A stretch of DNA of 64,000 nt. Source: Nitrosopumilaceae archaeon. Its GTDB lineage: Archaea; Thermoproteota; Nitrososphaeria; Nitrososphaerales; Nitrosopumilaceae. Both the position numbers and the translations under genes were made by a program. Shown piece after piece: positions 53,522 through 62,352 of this stretch. Positions within the stretch are counted from its first letter, which is position 1. Each line of letters begins with the position of its first letter. Below the pieces are notes generated by a model. That model was not told the origin of the DNA and made no database searches. It was given only the letters and a program-made list of their open reading frames with translations. Location: NCBI GenBank assembly GCA_965208905.1, contig OZ242365.1, positions 960,001-1,024,000 of the forward strand, in the 5' to 3' direction.

Positions 53522-55098
53522 GGTGATTATGCAGAAGCCTAATGACGGCAAACACCGGCTTGCATTATCCGACCATCGGATTCAATGACGCATGTCTGTT
53601 CGGATCAATCCGGCCATCCCTTCCTCCAACCCCTTCGGAGCTTATGCGATCAAACCAAAGTACTTTACTTTAAATATTCGTAATTGCCCATATAGGTATG
53701 TCCACAATAACACGCACAATACATGTGGCGCACAACAACGGGCAACTCCTGGGAGGTCTTCTGCACTACATACTCGCCGCGTCCAACGGTACCGCCAAGG
53801 CACTCCGTAGGGGCGTGCGGGGCAAGGAACTGAGGCGCAGGGCGGTACACCACACACGTGTGTATCAAACACGCTTTGCCGACTACATTGTATTGGATGT
53901 ATTTGGAAGTCACAAGGCATGGCGTACAAAGCAATTGACGGATAAACATGCCCGCGCGCCGCACTTTCGTAATCCGGTGGCGCAGACCGACATATTTGAG
54001 TTGGCATTTGATGATACATCAAAACGGTGGAACGGCACGCCGTCAATCCATGTAGCAGTATATGGAACGGGTCGGCAGAATAGGTCGTGGATGGTATTTC
54101 CGGTACCGCCATATGTCGTAAATGAGCTTGGCAGGCCAAACAGGACACCCAAAACCGTATCCATAAACAGGGATGAGATATTCATCACGTATCGGGAAAA
54201 TGTGCAGGATAGTAAAGCCGTAATGTGGGCAGGTGTGGATATGAATGCAAAGAACAACGCGTATTCATTCACTGATGGTACGGTAACTATTGTGGGCAAC
54301 CGAAATGGGAGTGAGTACAACAGGGCGTGTAGCAGGATATTGAAGGTGAGGCGGCGGAACGATGACCGCATCATGACAAAGTATACGGGAAAGGCATGGA
54401 AAACATACGGGAACCGCATACGCAATGATGTACATGTGGAGGCCAAAAGGTTGGCCAATGCGCGGTGTGTCGTAGGGTTTGAGACGCTGAACATCCACAA
54501 TCTGTACAACAAAAATGGTAAAATGTCGCCATATGTCCGCGGCAAGACGAAAGCGACGCTGAATACCGGCCAGAGGCAGGCTGCCCTCAAGAACGCGGCA
54601 GAGTCCGCGGGGCTACCAAGTGTGGGCGTTGAGCCGCGCAACACGTCTGCCAAATGCCACAAGTGTGGCGGAAGACTGGCGTTTCACAGTAAACGGAGCG
54701 GCGAGGTGCCGCTGCGCAACATGCGCTGCGGGGGTGTGTGCAGGGCAATGCGGGAGAGGGATGCCAACGCCAGCACCAACATATTATTGCTTACAATACG
54801 GAAATTAATGGGTGATTCTGTCGTTTCGACTGGAACCATCACGACGTCCGAGCTGCTGCAACTACTCAAAGTGGTGGTTGCCAATCGCACAGTCCCGCAT
54901 CGTAAGAAATTAATCGACATCATGCGGCTCTTAGAGGGTCGTAGCGCAAACACCTTGTGGTGTTTGTCGGGGGCGCACAAACCAAAACACCGTAATTACG
55001 TCGACGGTGACTCCATGGGTGTATTTGGGGTGGGCGATGCCGGCCGGAACGGTCCGGGGCCGCCCAATGCTGCCAAGTTGTGATTATGCATAATCTCT
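53522..55098 (+). mobile_element. Probable TIR/TSD-bounded tnpB element D (degenerate ends)
   Basis: Left end GGTGATTATGCAGAA (53522-53536) versus right-end reverse complement AGAGATTATGCATAA (55084-55098), 12/15; flanks ATTACATA and AATAAATA, 6/8. Confidence 0.6.
53698..55083 (+). CDS. tnpB: Divergent TnpB/Cas12f-like RNA-guided nuclease
   Basis: RuvC-I GVDMN, RuvC-II FETL, RNTSAKCHKCG..C...C, RuvC-III ERDANASTNI; about 100-aa C-terminal extension. Confidence 0.88.
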   Translation: MSTITRTIHVAHNNGQLLGGLLHYILAASNGTAKALRRGVRGKELRRRAVHHTRVYQTRFADYIVLDVFGSHKAWRTKQLTDKHARAPHFRNPVAQTDIFELAFDDTSKRWNGTPSIHVAVYGTGRQNRSWMVFPVPPYVVNELGRPNRTPKTVSINRDEIFITYRENVQDSKAVMWAGVDMNAKNNAYSFTDGTVTIVGNRNGSEYNRACSRILKVRRRNDDRIMTKYTGKAWKTYGNRIRNDVHVEAKRLANARCVVGFETLNIHNLYNKNGKMSPYVRGKTKATLNTGQRQAALKNAAESAGLPSVGVEPRNTSAKCHKCGGRLAFHSKRSGEVPLRNMRCGGVCRAMRERDANASTNILLLTIRKLMGDSVVSTGTITTSELLQLLKVVVANRTVPHRKKLIDIMRLLEGRSANTLWCLSGAHKPKHRNYVDGDSMGVFGVGDAGRNGPGPPNAAKL

Positions 55099-57262: not shown

Positions 57263-57454
57263 CCTTTGGCATGGGGGTTCAGGGGGAGGATCTAAACGTT
57301 TCGGTTTATTCTAAAAACTTGGGATACCATATCAAACGGCTCAGTGTATGTAAACGATCCTAATTCAACAAATTTTTATCCGAATCCTTTTTCAAATCAC
57401 TACACACACTGCCTATCACTACCTTTAAATGTGTATTTTAAGCAGTGTAATAGC

Positions 57455-58729
57455 GTGACTGCTAACGATCCATTTGAGAGTGCTACAAAGGAGCTCAATG
57501 ATGCTTGTGATATATTGGGAATTGATGACTCTGGCGTAAGAGAGTATTTGGCTACACCCAACAGGGTGATGCGAGTAAAGGTACCGGTTGTAATGGATGA
57601 TGGTAAACTGCGAGTATTTACTGGGTTTAGGAGTCAACACAACAATGACCGTGGACCATACAAAGGTGGTATTCGCTTTTTAGATCCCCAAGGCGGCATA
57701 CAGTACATAGAACGTGAAGTGATGGCGCTGTCTGCATGGATGACTTGGAAGACTGCTTTGGTTGACGTTCCTCTAGGTGGAGGCAAGGGAGCTGTCTATG
57801 TCAACCCAAAGACTGAAAATCTCAGTAGCGGGGAACTTGCGAGAATGACCCGTAGATTTGCATTTGAGATATCTGAGATATTGGGTCCGAACAAAGACAT
57901 TCCCGCACCTGATGTCTATACCACCGGAAATGAGATGGCTGAGATCATGGATGTGTATGGAAAGCTCAACAACAAGACACATCAACCCGGAGTGATAACT
58001 GGAAAACCGATAAACATGGGCGGCTCGCAGGCGCGCAACGTCGCCACTGGTCTGGGCACTGCGTACTGTGTACGTCGGGCAGCCAAAAAGACCGGCATGA
58101 GTCTAAAGGGATCCAGTGTGGTACTACAAGGCTTTGGAAACGCATCCACCTTTGCAGGCGAGTATCTTGAAGAGATGGGCTGCGTAGTGAAAGGTGCCTC
58201 AGACACAAAGGGCAGCATACTGATTGCCGATGGTGCAAAGATGTCTGACTTGGAAAGGCACAAAAATGAGACGGGTACTGTAGTTGGGTTCCCAAATAGT
58301 GAAAAAGTAGAGACTGCACAACTATTGACTGCTGACTGCGATGTCTTGATTCCCGGGGCCCTTGAAAACCAGATTACCACTGATATAGCTGAAGATATCA
58401 AATGCAAAATTATAGGCGAGGCTGCTAACGGCCCCACTCTACCTGATGCCGACCCAATATTGTTCGAGAAGGGCGTTCAGGTTATACCCGACATACTCGC
58501 AAATGCCGGTGGAGTCACAGTATCATACTATGAGTGGGTTCAAAACAACATGGGGTATTATTGGTCATTTGATGAGGTGGCCTCTAAGATGGAAGCACAC
58601 CTTATTCGTGGATTCGATGACTCATATGACATCTCTTTAGACAAGAAGGTAGACATGCGACGTGCTACAATGTCTGTCGCTGTCAAAAGAGTCTATGATG
58701 CCTTTATGACAAGAGGCATTTGGCCTTAG
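57455..58729 (+). CDS. gdhA: Glutamate dehydrogenase
   Basis: GPYKGGIRF, GGGKG, DIPAPDV, QGFGNA, EAANGP, NAGGVTVSYYEWVQN. Confidence 0.97.
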   Translation: MTANDPFESATKELNDACDILGIDDSGVREYLATPNRVMRVKVPVVMDDGKLRVFTGFRSQHNNDRGPYKGGIRFLDPQGGIQYIEREVMALSAWMTWKTALVDVPLGGGKGAVYVNPKTENLSSGELARMTRRFAFEISEILGPNKDIPAPDVYTTGNEMAEIMDVYGKLNNKTHQPGVITGKPINMGGSQARNVATGLGTAYCVRRAAKKTGMSLKGSSVVLQGFGNASTFAGEYLEEMGCVVKGASDTKGSILIADGAKMSDLERHKNETGTVVGFPNSEKVETAQLLTADCDVLIPGALENQITTDIAEDIKCKIIGEAANGPTLPDADPILFEKGVQVIPDILANAGGVTVSYYEWVQNNMGYYWSFDEVASKMEAHLIRGFDDSYDISLDKKVDMRRATMSVAVKRVYDAFMTRGIWP

Positions 58730-58801
58730 ATGCATATGATCATCTGACGTAAACTACATTAGTACAATATATGGTATATTGGGAGTTGTTTATGATGCAA
58801 C

Positions 58802-60516
58802 GGGTGTGTCCCACAGGTAAATATCCAAAAACAGTGAATGGTGTATGCCAATAACGGGAATCAAATATTAAATAGTAAAACATAGTATAGTACTCTATAA
58901 AAAGACGATGTGGTGACACCGTAGCAGTATCAATGCCACACGGCAAGGTGTACAATCCTGCAAAATTCCGTGAACTAACAGGGTCTCGCAGACCACCCAA
59001 ATACGACCCAGATGATATACTGGCATCCGCTTTACAATATGCAGTACACAAGACCGGCCTGGGGTATCATCTGTGGTCTGAGTTCATCAGGGATTTTCCA
59101 AAAGTGCGGGAAGCGTATAGTGGTGGAGAATTAAAAGAGTATGATGCCGGGGTTAAGAAGATATACAGATTGCTCAAGCACCGTGATAATAAATACATGG
59201 CGCAGTTCGCGTTAACTATGAAAGATGAGTGTGAGGCTAAAGTGCGTGCATACTGTATAAGACGTGCGCAAGACCCCAACGCGCGGCGGCCAAAATGCAC
59301 CAACCCAATACTGCGGCAGAATGCTGGGTCTTGTAGGATATATGGTCAAGGTTTTCGATGTAGGTTATCTGACGCACCGAATAAACCACTACATTCATCA
59401 CCATACGTGGTACTGCGATTTCCAATAATCCCACATAAACATACCATGGAGGTACAACTCACGCCCTACATGGTGGAAAAACTAGCTACTGCCGTAAGTG
59501 TGGGGGCCGTTACCGTGACAGATAAGACCATATCTATAGCATATGAGCCGCAACCCATCACACCAGTACAACCCAAAGGTATCACAGGTATGGATGTCAA
59601 CAAAGTACAGCATGTTACGGCTGACACTAACGGGAGTGTAGAGCGTGTTCCAAATATGGCGCTTGAAGCCGCTCAGACACGACGGCAGAAACTCGCGAAT
59701 TTAGGAGTAACTGGCGGCAAACCGAAGAGTAAACAATCCCAAAAACCAAAGAAGCGTACTCTGCCAAAGCACGTCAAACACGTAGGCCGTAGGCCGAAGA
59801 ATAAAAAGCGTCATGATGAACGTGTGAGTCGTTGTGAACGCGCCCACATAAACACCAGATACAACAATCAAAAGAAGGACTGGTTGTTCAAATTAATGCA
59901 TGGGTTGGCTTCCCTGGGCTTTGTGTTGGCGTTGGAGGAGCCAACCATCGACAGGATGATGAAAAAGAGTAACAAGAATATGTCAAACGAGACGCGCGAC
60001 TTGTTGAAGATGGGGCTGAGTCAGGGTATAATATGGGCGGTGGCTAAAAGCGTATACGGAAAGCATGGTCTTCCCGTGATTGGTGTTGTTGCCAAAGGTA
60101 CTAGTTCTACATGTCCCACATGTAATGGAAAGTTATGGGAGCCAGAGTACGGCATGAAAATATGGAAAAAGTGGAGGCGTATTAAGGGGTGTGGGGTTTG
60201 TTTATATCATATCGACAGGGATGATGTCGCAGCCATCAATATTGTACGGCGCGGCATCCTCAAGTATTGTAAACCGGCAGCCGATTCTAATCGGTGGGTG
60301 GCCGGGGATTGGGAGCAGTTGGTCCAACCATTATTGGACCATACGGTCTTGTGGTTTCCGCAGGACCGTGAAGGGCGGCATCCTAAAGGGGAGGTGATGA
60401 ACTCAATGAGTGATGATTTACCATCCCTGGACGACCACCTGGATGTATCCAATTGTGCTGCTGGTGTAGCGCTGCCGGAGGAGACTCCGGTGGCTTTATA
60501 CTAGTGGGACACACCC
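58802..60516 (+). mobile_element. TIR/TSD-bounded tnpB element E
   Basis: Perfect 13-bp TIRs GGGTGTGTCCCAC (58802-58814) and GTGGGACACACCC (60504-60516); perfect 9-bp TSD TGATGCAAC (58793-58801, 60517-60525). Confidence 0.93.
58933..60504 (+). CDS. tnpB: Divergent TnpB/Cas12f-like RNA-guided nuclease (523 aa)
   Basis: RuvC-I GMDVN, RuvC-II LEEP, GTSSTCPTC..CGVC, RuvC-III DRDDVAAINI; Lys/Arg-rich insert; stop codon abuts the TIR. Confidence 0.88.
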   Translation: MPHGKVYNPAKFRELTGSRRPPKYDPDDILASALQYAVHKTGLGYHLWSEFIRDFPKVREAYSGGELKEYDAGVKKIYRLLKHRDNKYMAQFALTMKDECEAKVRAYCIRRAQDPNARRPKCTNPILRQNAGSCRIYGQGFRCRLSDAPNKPLHSSPYVVLRFPIIPHKHTMEVQLTPYMVEKLATAVSVGAVTVTDKTISIAYEPQPITPVQPKGITGMDVNKVQHVTADTNGSVERVPNMALEAAQTRRQKLANLGVTGGKPKSKQSQKPKKRTLPKHVKHVGRRPKNKKRHDERVSRCERAHINTRYNNQKKDWLFKLMHGLASLGFVLALEEPTIDRMMKKSNKNMSNETRDLLKMGLSQGIIWAVAKSVYGKHGLPVIGVVAKGTSSTCPTCNGKLWEPEYGMKIWKKWRRIKGCGVCLYHIDRDDVAAINIVRRGILKYCKPAADSNRWVAGDWEQLVQPLLDHTVLWFPQDREGRHPKGEVMNSMSDDLPSLDDHLDVSNCAAGVALPEETPVALY

Positions 60517-60585
60517 TGATGCAACTCTGACTATTAAAGGCCCCCGCATTGGGTGTTTGTTATGATATGATATGATATGGTACAT

Positions 60586-61125
60586 CTAGGCGAGACCCTC
60601 ATCTTTGAGCTCTTTGGACTCGGCTAGAACTTGGTTGTATCTCTGCTCTTTGTATCTTTTTAGTGCTTCACGTATGTGACTAAACTCGTTTCCCAGAATC
60701 ATGGCTGCATATATACCTGCACTCTTTGCCTTGTTTACGCCCATCGTCCCCACCGGCGAACCTGACGGCATCTCAGATATGGATAACAAAGCATCTAGGC
60801 CACCAAAAGCTGAGAACCTGCCGCCAGGACCCTTGTCTGCATATACCAGTATGGGAACACCTATCACCGGTATTGTGGTGAACGATGATATCATACCTGG
60901 CAGATGCGCTGCCCCACCAGCCCCTGCTATTATTACACGAAGCCCCAACTCCTCTGCGTGTTTGGCGTACTCCTGTAGTCGAGTTGGTGTGCGGTGCGCC
61001 GAGACTATCTGGTCTTCATGTGGTATATCAAATGAGTCGAGCACTTCGGCAGCCTCTCGCATAATCCGACGATCCGATGAGGACCCCATTATGATTCCTA
61101 CCAATGCTGTGTTATTGTTAGCCAT
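60586..61125 (-). CDS. purE: N5-CAIR mutase
   Basis: IMGSSSD, SAHRTP, AGAGGAAHLPG, PVIGVP. Confidence 0.97.
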   Translation of the reverse strand: MANNNTALVGIIMGSSSDRRIMREAAEVLDSFDIPHEDQIVSAHRTPTRLQEYAKHAEELGLRVIIAGAGGAAHLPGMISSFTTIPVIGVPILVYADKGPGGRFSAFGGLDALLSISEMPSGSPVGTMGVNKAKSAGIYAAMILGNEFSHIREALKRYKEQRYNQVLAESKELKDEGLA

Positions 61126-61209
61126 TATACCGACATACAAACTGATACGTATTAACCATGCTGTCCAAAATCAGTATATATTTTTAGAGTTGAGTTTTTT
61201 TGTTGTACT

Positions 61210-62352
61210 ATGAGTAAGGTATTGGGAGTTATAGGCGGGGGTCAACTAGGCATGATGCTCACGCAGGCAAGCTCTCGCATGAGTGATATATCCAAAGTAA
61301 TAGTACTAGACCCCACAGAGGGTTGCCCTGCAGCGCAAGTTGGCGCAGAACAGATACAGGCTTCATTTGATGATGCTACCGCCATAAAAAAACTAGCCTC
61401 ACTATCTGATGTCATAACATACGAGATAGAGTCTGGTGACAGCTACGTTTTAGAGTCTCTACAGGATGTTGCGGAGATAAACCCATCACCGCAGACCCTG
61501 CGCATAATACAAGACAAATATACACAGAAAGAGTTCTTGTCTCAAAATAACATACCTGCCCCGGACTTTGCCATGATATCATCATACGATGATATAGTAT
61601 CTGCTGCCTCAAAGTTTGGTTATCCTATACTCTTAAAGGCCCGAAGAGGCGGATATGATGGCCGGGGAAACTACAAAGTAGACTCTATACGCGACATACA
61701 AAGAGCTCTAGACTATTTTGGTGATACACCATTAATGGCAGAAGAGTTTGTGCCATATGTGATGGAGATATCCGTTATAATATCTCGAAACATATCTGGG
61801 CAAATTGAACACTATCCCGCCGTTGAGAACATTCATGAACACAACATACTGCGCCAGACCATATCGCCTGCCCGCATATCGCCAAGTCTGGCAGATAAAG
61901 CTGCTGATATAGCAATGAAGACTGTAAATGTACTTCAGGGAGCCGGAGTATTTGGGATAGAGATGTTCTTACTACCTGATGACACAATACTGATAAATGA
62001 GATCGCCCCCCGGGTCCACAACTCTGGCCATCACACAATGCATTCTGCAGCGACCTCCCAGTTTGAGCAGCATATACGTGCCGTATCGGGCATGGATTTG
62101 GGCAGTACCAAACTACATGGGCCTGCCGTTATGTATAACATACTGGGCCCACCAAACTTTACTGGCGAGTATATGTCCCCACAAATATCACATGATGCAT
62201 CGCATCTTGTCATGTATGGCAAAAAGATATCAAAACCCCTTCGAAAACTAGGCCACATCAACATACACGACAACAAAGAGTACACCGTATCACAACTGTT
62301 GGATATACTAGAGTCCATAAAACCACAGGCTGCTATCTCACCAATCTATTAA
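61210..62352 (+). CDS. purK: N5-CAIR synthase
   Basis: GGGQLG.M, GGYDGRG, NEIAPRVHNSGH, RKLGH. Confidence 0.97.
   Translation: MSKVLGVIGGGQLGMMLTQASSRMSDISKVIVLDPTEGCPAAQVGAEQIQASFDDATAIKKLASLSDVITYEIESGDSYVLESLQDVAEINPSPQTLRIIQDKYTQKEFLSQNNIPAPDFAMISSYDDIVSAASKFGYPILLKARRGGYDGRGNYKVDSIRDIQRALDYFGDTPLMAEEFVPYVMEISVIISRNISGQIEHYPAVENIHEHNILRQTISPARISPSLADKAADIAMKTVNVLQGAGVFGIEMFLLPDDTILINEIAPRVHNSGHHTMHSAATSQFEQHIRAVSGMDLGSTKLHGPAVMYNILGPPNFTGEYMSPQISHDASHLVMYGKKISKPLRKLGHINIHDNKEYTVSQLLDILESIKPQAAISPIY

Follow-up and report, generated by a model that had tools for sequence, protein, structure and literature searches.

Associations of TnpB proteins with DDE transposases have been described in six branches, designated DDE-1 to DDE-6, all with inverted terminal repeats and with the 3' end of tnpB usually no more than 250 bp from the transposon end, and the same account already describes solo TnpBs that are mobilised in trans (Altae-Tran et al. 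2023, PNAS, PMC10691335). A 2026 review gives ISL2, IS630 and IS1031 as the DDE partners of TnpB and describes such pairings as rare in prokaryotes; the IS200/IS605 elements are described there as lacking terminal inverted repeats (TIRs) and target-site duplications (TSDs) and as inserting 3' of a fixed motif of 4-5 nt (PMC13565253). From eukaryotes, non-autonomous TIR/TSD elements bearing Fanzor alone have been reported (bioRxiv 10.1101/2023.08.09.552727). The present report concerns an element, designated E, in a stretch of 64,000 nucleotides (the window) from a Nitrosopumilaceae archaeon (GenBank assembly GCA_965208905.1, contig OZ242365.1, positions 960,001 to 1,024,000 of the forward strand). 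Element E is 1715 bp in length (window 58802-60516), has perfect ends and a perfect target duplication, and contains a single intact open reading frame (ORF) encoding a TnpB-like protein of 523 amino acids. It is quite probably a non-autonomous cut-and-paste transposon with IS5-family ends, in which a divergent TnpB gene replaces the DDE transposase and which is moved in trans by a sister insertion sequence (IS).

As in the DDE-associated TnpBs described in PMC10691335, the tnpB-like gene of E lies between symmetrical inverted terminal repeats; its stop codon overlaps the right repeat, well inside the 250 bp given in that account, and solo TnpBs with ends near-identical to those of an element with a DDE transposase occur in both cases. 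E differs from those described TnpBs in that, in the copies examined, the E-type TnpB and the transposase are on separate elements (1.7-1.8 kb and 1.25 kb, respectively) beside 315-bp miniature inverted-repeat transposable elements (MITEs), and in that it is hosted by one sponge-associated genus of Nitrosopumilaceae. With TnpBs of the DDE-associated and trans-mobilised sort already described, the general picture is unchanged and E is of a kind already known, being a genus-restricted and unusually divergent case with a separable partner IS, MITEs and insertion polymorphism. Literature searches found no paper on TnpB in sponge Thaumarchaeota with a transposase, and nothing related was found for the combination of non-autonomous TnpB, IS5 and DDE transposase.

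The left TIR of E (GGGTGTGTCCCAC, 13 bp, 58802-58814, plus strand) has its exact reverse complement at 60504-60516 (minus strand, reading GTGGGACACACCC on the plus strand), and imperfect likeness to the right end continues up to about 58826. The element is flanked by two perfectly matching 9-bp copies of the TSD TGATGCAAC, at 58793-58801 and 60517-60525. The gene for the 523-aa protein (58933-60504, plus strand) is the only ORF of more than 103 aa inside the element, and the G of its TAG stop codon (60502-60504) is also the first base of the right repeat, an overlap of one base at 60504. The repeats, the duplication and the overlap had all been described in an initial annotation made from the sequence alone, and each was confirmed. 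Four occurrences of the exact 13-mer are present in the window's genome (2,214,775 bp, 99.57 % complete), two of them being the ends of E. A scan of this genome for TIR pairs (inverted pairs spaced by 80-8000 bp, with at most 3 mismatches in the pair and 1 in the 9-bp flanks) yielded just two units, E itself (E1) and a sister element, E2 (genome positions 877423-879145, minus strand), which is 87 % identical to E1, has its own perfect 9-bp TSD (CTGCAACAC) and has an ORF broken by a frameshift and an in-frame TAG. Since the 13-mer is rare in the genome and the pair scan recovers E1 and E2 alone, the features of E are beyond what chance would give. The sequence TGCAAC, which is common to the TSDs of E1 and E2, lies in opposite orientations and different registers and was treated as unproven. 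A genome search for the TIR had been set beforehand as a test, and the repeat was found to recur both in the window's genome and in related genomes, where the terminal motif is kept as GGSTGTGTCCCAC in related elements.

The population distribution of the insertion was followed in contigs of 4 public sequencing runs (4 studies) aligned to window 57800-61500. In 3 of the 4 runs (X8, X13 and X16) a contig fuses 58792 to 60517, so that 1724 bp are absent, equal to the 1715-bp element plus one TSD copy, and the other TSD copy is kept at the junction, as in an empty site; in the remaining run (X5) the site is occupied. A contig of 5989 nt from X8 bears a copy of the element at a second site, with 9 differences in 1653 nt and the TSD GAGCTGATA on both sides. 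This second site is uninterrupted in the window's genome at 664742-664701 (found by blastn-short), and contigs of X13 and X16 have its left flank, with right-hand loose ends that differ from it. The chromosomal flanks differ by about 2 % between populations (23 differences in 993 nt for X8), and the element by about 0.5 %. E moved recently, and its insertion is polymorphic between populations; the recent insertion that had been suggested from the perfect repeats is borne out by the empty-site contigs. An rve-type IS of 1044 bp, flanked by a long direct target repeat (GGTGAATTTTTGGAG), adjoins the site occupied by E in X8 (genome positions 664701-665808).

A scan of one genome per prokaryote species identified 30 E-type loci, all in Nitrosopumilaceae or in metagenome-assembled genomes of Thaumarchaeota. 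Perfect 9-bp TSDs, all different in sequence, flank 11 of 18 full-length relatives from other Nitrosopumilaceae genomes, and one more has an 8-bp TSD; when the rest were inspected by eye, 3 matched at 8 of 9 positions, 1 matched if shifted by one base and 2 showed no duplication. Inspection of the same 18 relatives by eye found no shared motif, such as a transposon-associated motif (TAM), in the 5 nt upstream of the TSDs across genomes. The 5 nt upstream of the three insertions in the E lineage are GTTTA, CTTTG and TTTTG, three cases being too few for evidence.

An IS with the same ends as E was found in a congeneric Nitrosopumilaceae genome of 2.74 Mb (designated G001), which contains at least 12 near-full-length E-type loci, most of them units of 1774-1784 bp. 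The pattern GGCTGTGTCCCAC (up to 1 mismatch) has 42 matches in G001, compared with 3 for a control pattern; some of the 42 form inverted pairs with spacings of 1242-1254 bp and of 315 bp. The 1.25-kb IS has an intact ORF of 327 aa in copy L071, ending ...EYHQRSIIEAVFGAIKKMYGNHLR..., and its product matches PF01609 (4.6e-18) and DUF772, contains the motif YHQRSIIEAVFGAIKK, and matches the NCBIfam model transpos_IS5_2 at 1.5e-31 with 110 bits, which is under the cut-off of 140. TSDs of 9 bp were seen in 2 of the 3 copies inspected, and the sole 315-bp MITE that was read (L074) has the 9-bp TSD TGGGCATTG. The first 20 nt (GGCTGTGTCCCACAGACATA) are identical in end A of this partner IS and in the left end of the E-type element of the same genome, and the interiors of the two are unrelated apart from about 20-25 nt at each end. 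The IS5 family, which includes ISL2 and IS1031 as subgroups, and its MITEs resemble E and its partner in having repeats that start with GG, a TSD of 9 bp and short internally deleted derivatives that keep both ends, and the partner transposase has the DUF772 and DDE_Tnp_1 domains and the Y-x2-R-x3-E-x6-K motif of that family. The differences are that E is without a DDE transposase and that the partner transposase scores under the IS5_2 cut-off (110 vs 140 bits). E is regarded as non-autonomous because it encodes no DDE transposase, and because the element with the same ends in the congener encodes one of IS5 type, the 523-aa protein is best read as cargo and not, as had been proposed, as the mark of a different transposase family. 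At locus L073 (G001 1769010-1771515) a partner IS copy (1769510-1770751) is located 251 bp upstream of an E-type element starting at 1771003, an arrangement that may be a chance adjacency or possibly a composite.

E-type TnpB genes (E<=1e-20) are present in 7 of 201 genomes surveyed across the family, all 7 in the window's genus (7 of its 10 genomes, or 6 of the 9 other than the window's own), and in 0 of 191 genomes across 26 other genera. Among the 10 genomes of the genus, the cognate transposase is full-length (80-100 % identity) in G066, which is apparently the same record as G001 (the coordinates coincide), and in G136; the E-type load of these is at least 12 near-full-length loci (G001/G066) and 6 TnpB matches (G136). 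The window's genome (G000) and G126 have only remnants of the cognate transposase (74-78 % identity, 39-155 residues) and 1-2 E-type copies, and what is left in the window's genome is codons 1-39 of the transposase, preceded by a decayed end (GGCTGTGCCCTACGGACATA...). The copy-rich genomes are those with the full-length cognate transposase, which would fit trans-mobilisation followed by decay, although the co-occurrence is suggestive only because the genomes are kin and the sample is small. The TIR-pair scan did not find a partner IS with E ends in the window's genome. Six multi-copy transposase families were typed there (two rve, DDE_3, IS240, IS1595 and IS110), and in the four whose ends were read (the two rve, the DDE_3 and the IS1595 families) these are unlike those of E. 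The same genome has two copies, 99.8 % identical, of a 1232-bp IS (184960-186191 and 2069492-2070722) with a 367-aa DDE_Tnp_1 (IS5-like) ORF; its ends (CTGTGTCATAAYTATTC) have a TGTGTC core in common with the E repeat.

The 523-aa protein is a very divergent member of the TnpB superfamily. A Pfam scan matched PF07282 alone (Cas12f1-like TNB zinc ribbon; 34.9 bits vs a cut-off of 26.3, 1.8e-8, residues 377-437), and neither HTH_OrfB_IS605 nor OrfB_IS605 gave a match at E<=1, in keeping with the earlier remark that the usual TnpB helix-turn-helix signature is lacking. NCBIfam TnpB models match the C-terminal half far under their cut-offs (guided_TnpB, 40.8 bits, cut-off 100, 1.6e-10; IS607_TnpB, 25.5 bits, cut-off 350; IS200_TnpB, 24.8 bits, cut-off 425). 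A word-indexed search of 5.8 billion proteins returned 41 relatives with 48-99 % identity, the named ones all labelled Nitrosopumilaceae, Thaumarchaeota or Nitrososphaerota, and phmmer, run exhaustively on 1.84 billion cluster representatives, recovered in essence a single full-length cluster at 50 % identity together with fragments; beyond these, relatives at E about 1e-7 and 28-31 % identity match only residues about 270-450. The protein exceeds the typical TnpB length of about 400 aa by about 120 aa, its N-terminal half escapes detection by sequence, and it carries a basic insert. This Lys/Arg-rich segment, KPKSKQSQKPKKRTLPKHVKHVGRRPKNKKR (residues about 263-294, 59719-59814, plus strand), lies between RuvC-I and RuvC-II as the initial annotation had placed it, and its basic character is conserved and its length variable among homologues.

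A split RuvC domain with an Asp-Glu-Asp triad is present, the three residues being D221 (RuvC-I, motif GMDVNK, codon 59593-59595), E335 (RuvC-II, motif LEEPT, codon 59935-59937) and D430 (RuvC-III, motif DRDDVAAINI, codon 60220-60222), all on the plus strand and each invariant in 29 of 29 aligned homologues. D221 is the putative RuvC-I Asp from the position of its motif; in a PDB profile search E335 aligns with the VED Glu of the TnpB-like chain 9yyg, and the D430 motif aligns with DRDENAA(K/L)NI of 9b0l and 9yyg. The CxxC...CxxC zinc ribbon of the TNB domain (C394, C397, C420 and C423; 60112-60201, plus strand), which falls in the PF07282 match, has all four Cys invariant in the 29 homologues. 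An AlphaFold2 model built from the homologue alignment (mean predicted local distance difference test, pLDDT, 62.5; predicted template modelling score, pTM, 0.42) is disordered at residues 1-42, at 260-294 (the Lys/Arg stretch, pLDDT <50) and at 473-523. Foldseek comparison of the model with PDB matched AsCas12f (8.5e-9), mimivirus Fanzor2 (1.3e-7) and TnpB 8h1j (4.2e-6) with probability 1.00 over 437-488 alignment columns and TM-scores of just 0.32-0.43. The matches bear out an overall WED-REC-RuvC fold, and since the alignments run across this length the N-terminal half has the family fold though sequence methods miss it. Comparison of E1 with the L020 homologue (78 % identical by tblastn) gave a ratio of nonsynonymous to synonymous substitution rates (dN/dS) of 0.12 in codons 1-445; the protein is under purifying selection and is probably catalytically competent.

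The divergent TnpB/Cas12f-like nuclease predicted initially is upheld by structure prediction and profile placement, which give a Cas12f/Fanzor2/TnpB fold for a protein lying outside the curated IS605/IS607 TnpB models. The suggestion of a new compact nuclease clade holds insofar as the protein forms a genus-restricted divergent branch, and does not hold insofar as that branch belongs to a known superfamily. The initial annotation had named two outcomes that would count against it, placement of the protein in a standard IS605/IS607 TnpB clade with canonical internal ends and a TIR occurring nowhere else; with the TIR recurring and the protein outside the curated models, neither was found. By sequence, the top PDB match of the protein is mimivirus Fanzor2 (9b0l; 7.9e-5), which ranks fifth by fold; the sequence match is weak and barely above the next (1.2e-4) and does not demonstrate a specific relationship with Fanzor. 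Like the Fanzor elements described in bioRxiv 10.1101/2023.08.09.552727, E has a TnpB-type nuclease as the only gene of a non-autonomous cut-and-paste TIR/TSD element. The host of E is an archaeon, whereas Fanzors are eukaryotic or of giant viruses, and the E protein keeps the RuvC-II Glu (LEEPT) where Fanzor2 reads IGKLN.

The right end of E (60317-60502, plus strand), overlapping the codons of the C-terminal tail, is a candidate omega-RNA scaffold or structured right end, marked by covariation and a depressed synonymous rate (dS) over roughly the last 190-230 nt. RNAalifold, applied to 10 elements and 3 solo remnants aligned over their final 173-220 nt, gave 41 pairs in 9 helices, 16 of the pairs having compensatory changes; 93.9 % of cells are paired, compared with 34-46 % when partners are slid by 1-3 columns, and 0 of 500 column shuffles attain the observed covariation. 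The best helices are a 9-bp stem, in which 5 pairs have double changes, and a terminal hairpin (60471-60494, plus strand; core CCGGAG-GAGA-CTCCGG), located 10 nt before the right repeat, which forms helix 9 with 7 pairs, 3 of them changed on both sides, and is kept in solo remnants. In the comparison of E1 with L020, dS is 0.30 in tail codons 446-523 compared with 0.97 in codons 1-445, and dN/dS in the tail is higher, at 0.62; E1 and E2 are nearly identical along the last 110 nt or so. An Rfam scan of 58600-60700 at E<=1 gave only sub-threshold chance matches, to RF02706 (27.2 vs 86 bits, opposite strand) and RF00385.

The C-terminal tail had been put at about 85 aa; it is real, and its length is 93 aa when counted after D430, or about 78 aa if the count starts behind the final RuvC helix of the model. 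The covarying helices, low dS, raised dN/dS and disordered tail in the model suggest that the tail exists largely because the right end has a function at the nucleotide level, most likely that of a candidate omega-RNA scaffold together with a transposase-binding repeat. A guide-RNA scaffold, in E a likely one that would overlap the gene's 3' end as well as the right end, would be a feature in common with TnpB elements of the IS200/IS605 family. In the window's genome E-type right ends also stand alone, as about ten remnants of 34-235 bp (for example 250376-250593, 285949-286121, 1802791-1803021, 722319-722387 and 461543-461575) in which the hairpin and repeat are kept, and left-end remnants are almost absent. 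The solo remnants may be either decay products or stand-alone guide-RNA-like units; for two of them the coordinates of neighbouring ORFs, by inspection only, suggest truncation by other IS insertions.

That E is a non-autonomous relative of the partner IS, moved in trans, is the most economical reading of these data. The IS5-type transposase would bind the terminal repeats of about 20 nt and move E in trans, insertion giving a 9-bp staggered target joining as in the IS5-type partner family, and the sister IS that would supply the transposase is intact in congeneric genomes and a remnant in the window's genome. The TnpB-like protein would most likely act as an RNA-guided DNA endonuclease. Its omega-RNA scaffold may be transcribed from the last 190 nt or so of E, overlapping the codons of the disordered tail, and the guide may come from sequence at the right end or immediately beyond it, the protein then cutting DNA that matches the guide.

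Several observations weigh against this account. The main gap is the source of transposase for the recent moves in the population, as the window's genome is without an intact cognate transposase, yet E has moved within the species-level population, and the 367-aa DDE_Tnp_1 ORF of this genome is only 25 % identical to the cognate transposase and belongs to an IS with different ends. With the cognate transposase as query, two E-bearing genomes, G084 and G101, gave only relatives of 28-29 % identity, and a third, G044, gave nothing at E<=1e-8; G044 and G101 are drafts of 160-210 contigs. In G001, partner copies L070 and L072 are complete only after a frame change, and no element with transposase and TnpB genes inside one TIR pair was seen among the copies examined. 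The protein model is of only moderate quality (mean pLDDT 62.5, pTM 0.42); the RNA structure was both predicted and counted on one alignment of related sequences, in a region that also encodes a conserved peptide. There is no visible TAM, so the homing use of a flank-derived guide is not evident, and the TAM-coupled homing of IS605 elements is therefore not simply transferable; the E nuclease may have a relaxed TAM, use a guide fixed within the element or serve some other role.

In a rival reading the TnpB-like protein would itself be the transposase, its RuvC D-E-D site (RNase-H fold) cutting at the repeats and making the 9-bp stagger, so that E would be autonomous. E moved recently in a genome that has only a remnant of the IS5-type transposase and no Y1 TnpA, E-type genes occur in three other genomes in which the cognate transposase was not detected, and two further TIR-bounded TnpB-only families occur in the window's genome, for the 16-copy one of which (8-bp TSDs, up to 99.75 % identity) no partner IS was seen. 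The IS5-type IS and MITEs of G001, however, have the first 20 bases and the 9-bp TSD in common with E-type elements, and because they have the same ends and TSD, those of E are explained without a new activity. E-type copies are many where the full-length cognate transposase occurs, and the 315-bp MITEs move without encoding TnpB. TnpB is also dispensable for transposition of IS608 and ISDra2, where it acts as an RNA-guided nuclease. A transposase role for the E protein is held to be very unlikely. The ends had originally been taken as IS256-like from their GGGNGTGTC-type sequence and the 8-9-bp TSD, which would make E an IS256-like element or a derivative of one. A 9-bp TSD fits IS256 as well as parts of IS5 and IS4, so its length is compatible with this assignment; PF00872, the IS256-type transposase domain, gave 0 matches in the window's genome (control genomes were positive), the sole transposase found between such ends is the IS5-type enzyme of the congener, and the IS256 assignment is abandoned as extremely improbable.

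Membership of the TnpB superfamily, the 77 PF07282 matches in the window's genome and the hairpin near the right end would each suit an ordinary IS200/IS605 element from the TnpB-only IS1341 group, transposing in single-stranded form through a Y1 TnpA acting in trans. E is of the same protein superfamily as ISDra2, IS608 and the IS1341 group, but it differs from these in having TIRs and TSDs, and with its relatives (18 elements) it shows varied 9-bp TSDs and no fixed flanking motif. Y1 TnpA (PF01797) gave 0 matches in the window's genome, control genomes again being positive, the IS200_TnpB and IS607_TnpB cut-offs are missed by a wide margin, and the empty site, which compared with the occupied site lacks precisely the element and one 9-bp copy of the TSD, contradicts movement of the IS1341 kind, which is left with next to no probability. 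Immobility of the element is hardly more credible. The gene might be a domesticated TnpB serving as a regulator or defence protein, with the repeats as relics, and the single intact copy in the window's genome, the frameshifted second copy and the ten or so solo right-end remnants are what such a history could leave. Against it, occupancy of the site differs between populations, a near-identical copy (9 differences in 1653 nt) is present elsewhere, the catalytic triad is intact, and the congener has at least 12 near-full-length copies, most of 1774-1784 bp.

Element E bears on the question of whether, and in what way, TnpB benefits a transposon whose excision is by double-strand cuts and whose insertion follows no fixed motif. 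The locus is a compact natural system for this purpose, comprising a nuclease gene under selection, a candidate guide-RNA region, a partner IS and MITEs in a congener, and occupied and empty alleles. A divergent 523-aa TnpB-fold protein with canonical catalytic residues may also interest those who mine genomes for compact nucleases. A wider proposal, which is considered rather unlikely, is that several TnpB lineages in this one genus of sponge-associated, ammonia-oxidising archaea abandoned IS200/IS605 and are now "parasites of parasites", living off cut-and-paste DDE transposons, with the nuclease re-wired. If this were true, TnpB lineages on DDE transposons would be a prokaryotic counterpart of the Fanzor lifestyle, and, given the absence of a fixed flank motif and the 9-bp duplication, the omega-RNA would have to include the transposase-binding repeat, with the guide taken from the TSD plus flank or else fixed. 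The nuclease would then be TAM-relaxed or otherwise re-wired, with a job unlike the TAM-coupled homing of IS605 elements; it might, for example, cut empty alleles or partner-IS ends and bias repair or transposition.

Other TnpB families are abundant in the window's genome, in which the largest accounts for 54 ORFs. A second TnpB-only family (16 ORFs, up to 568 aa, PF07282 at 7.6e-7) forms units of about 1608-1612 bp with a TIR of about 23 bp (GGTTCCTCCCGCAAAGTCGGGTG), 90-99.75 % identical to one another, for example at 92958-94566, 239557-241166 and 329445-331054; 8-bp TSDs were present in 8 of 12 inspected by eye, and the genome yielded no DDE partner sharing this TIR. A third family (6 ORFs, about 465 aa) has a 16-bp TIR (AGAGTTTATGCGTAAT), and one member, at window 53698-55083 (plus strand), is probably the element A or B of the initial annotation. 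The same TIR bounds a degraded 1585-bp unit with a DDE_Tnp_1 fragment (genome positions 1564409-1565993), which hints at a second pairing of TnpB with a DDE IS.

The left end and 5' leader of E (58802-58932, plus strand, 131 nt) include an A/T-rich, promoter-like sequence, and the first 140 nt of E1 and E2 are 97.1 % identical, compared with 87 % across the whole element. The ATG start of most homologues (M-K/R-R-R...) reads ATA in E1 (58897-58899), so the ORF starts 12 codons downstream at MPHGK, a start that is also used in a few relatives. Outside the element, a gene for a glutamate/Leu/Phe/Val dehydrogenase (57344-58729, plus strand; PF00208 at 3.2e-66) and one for a purE-like AIR carboxylase (60586-61140, minus strand; PF00731 at 5.2e-53) flank the insertion, which lies in the 3'-3' spacer separating these two convergent housekeeping genes.

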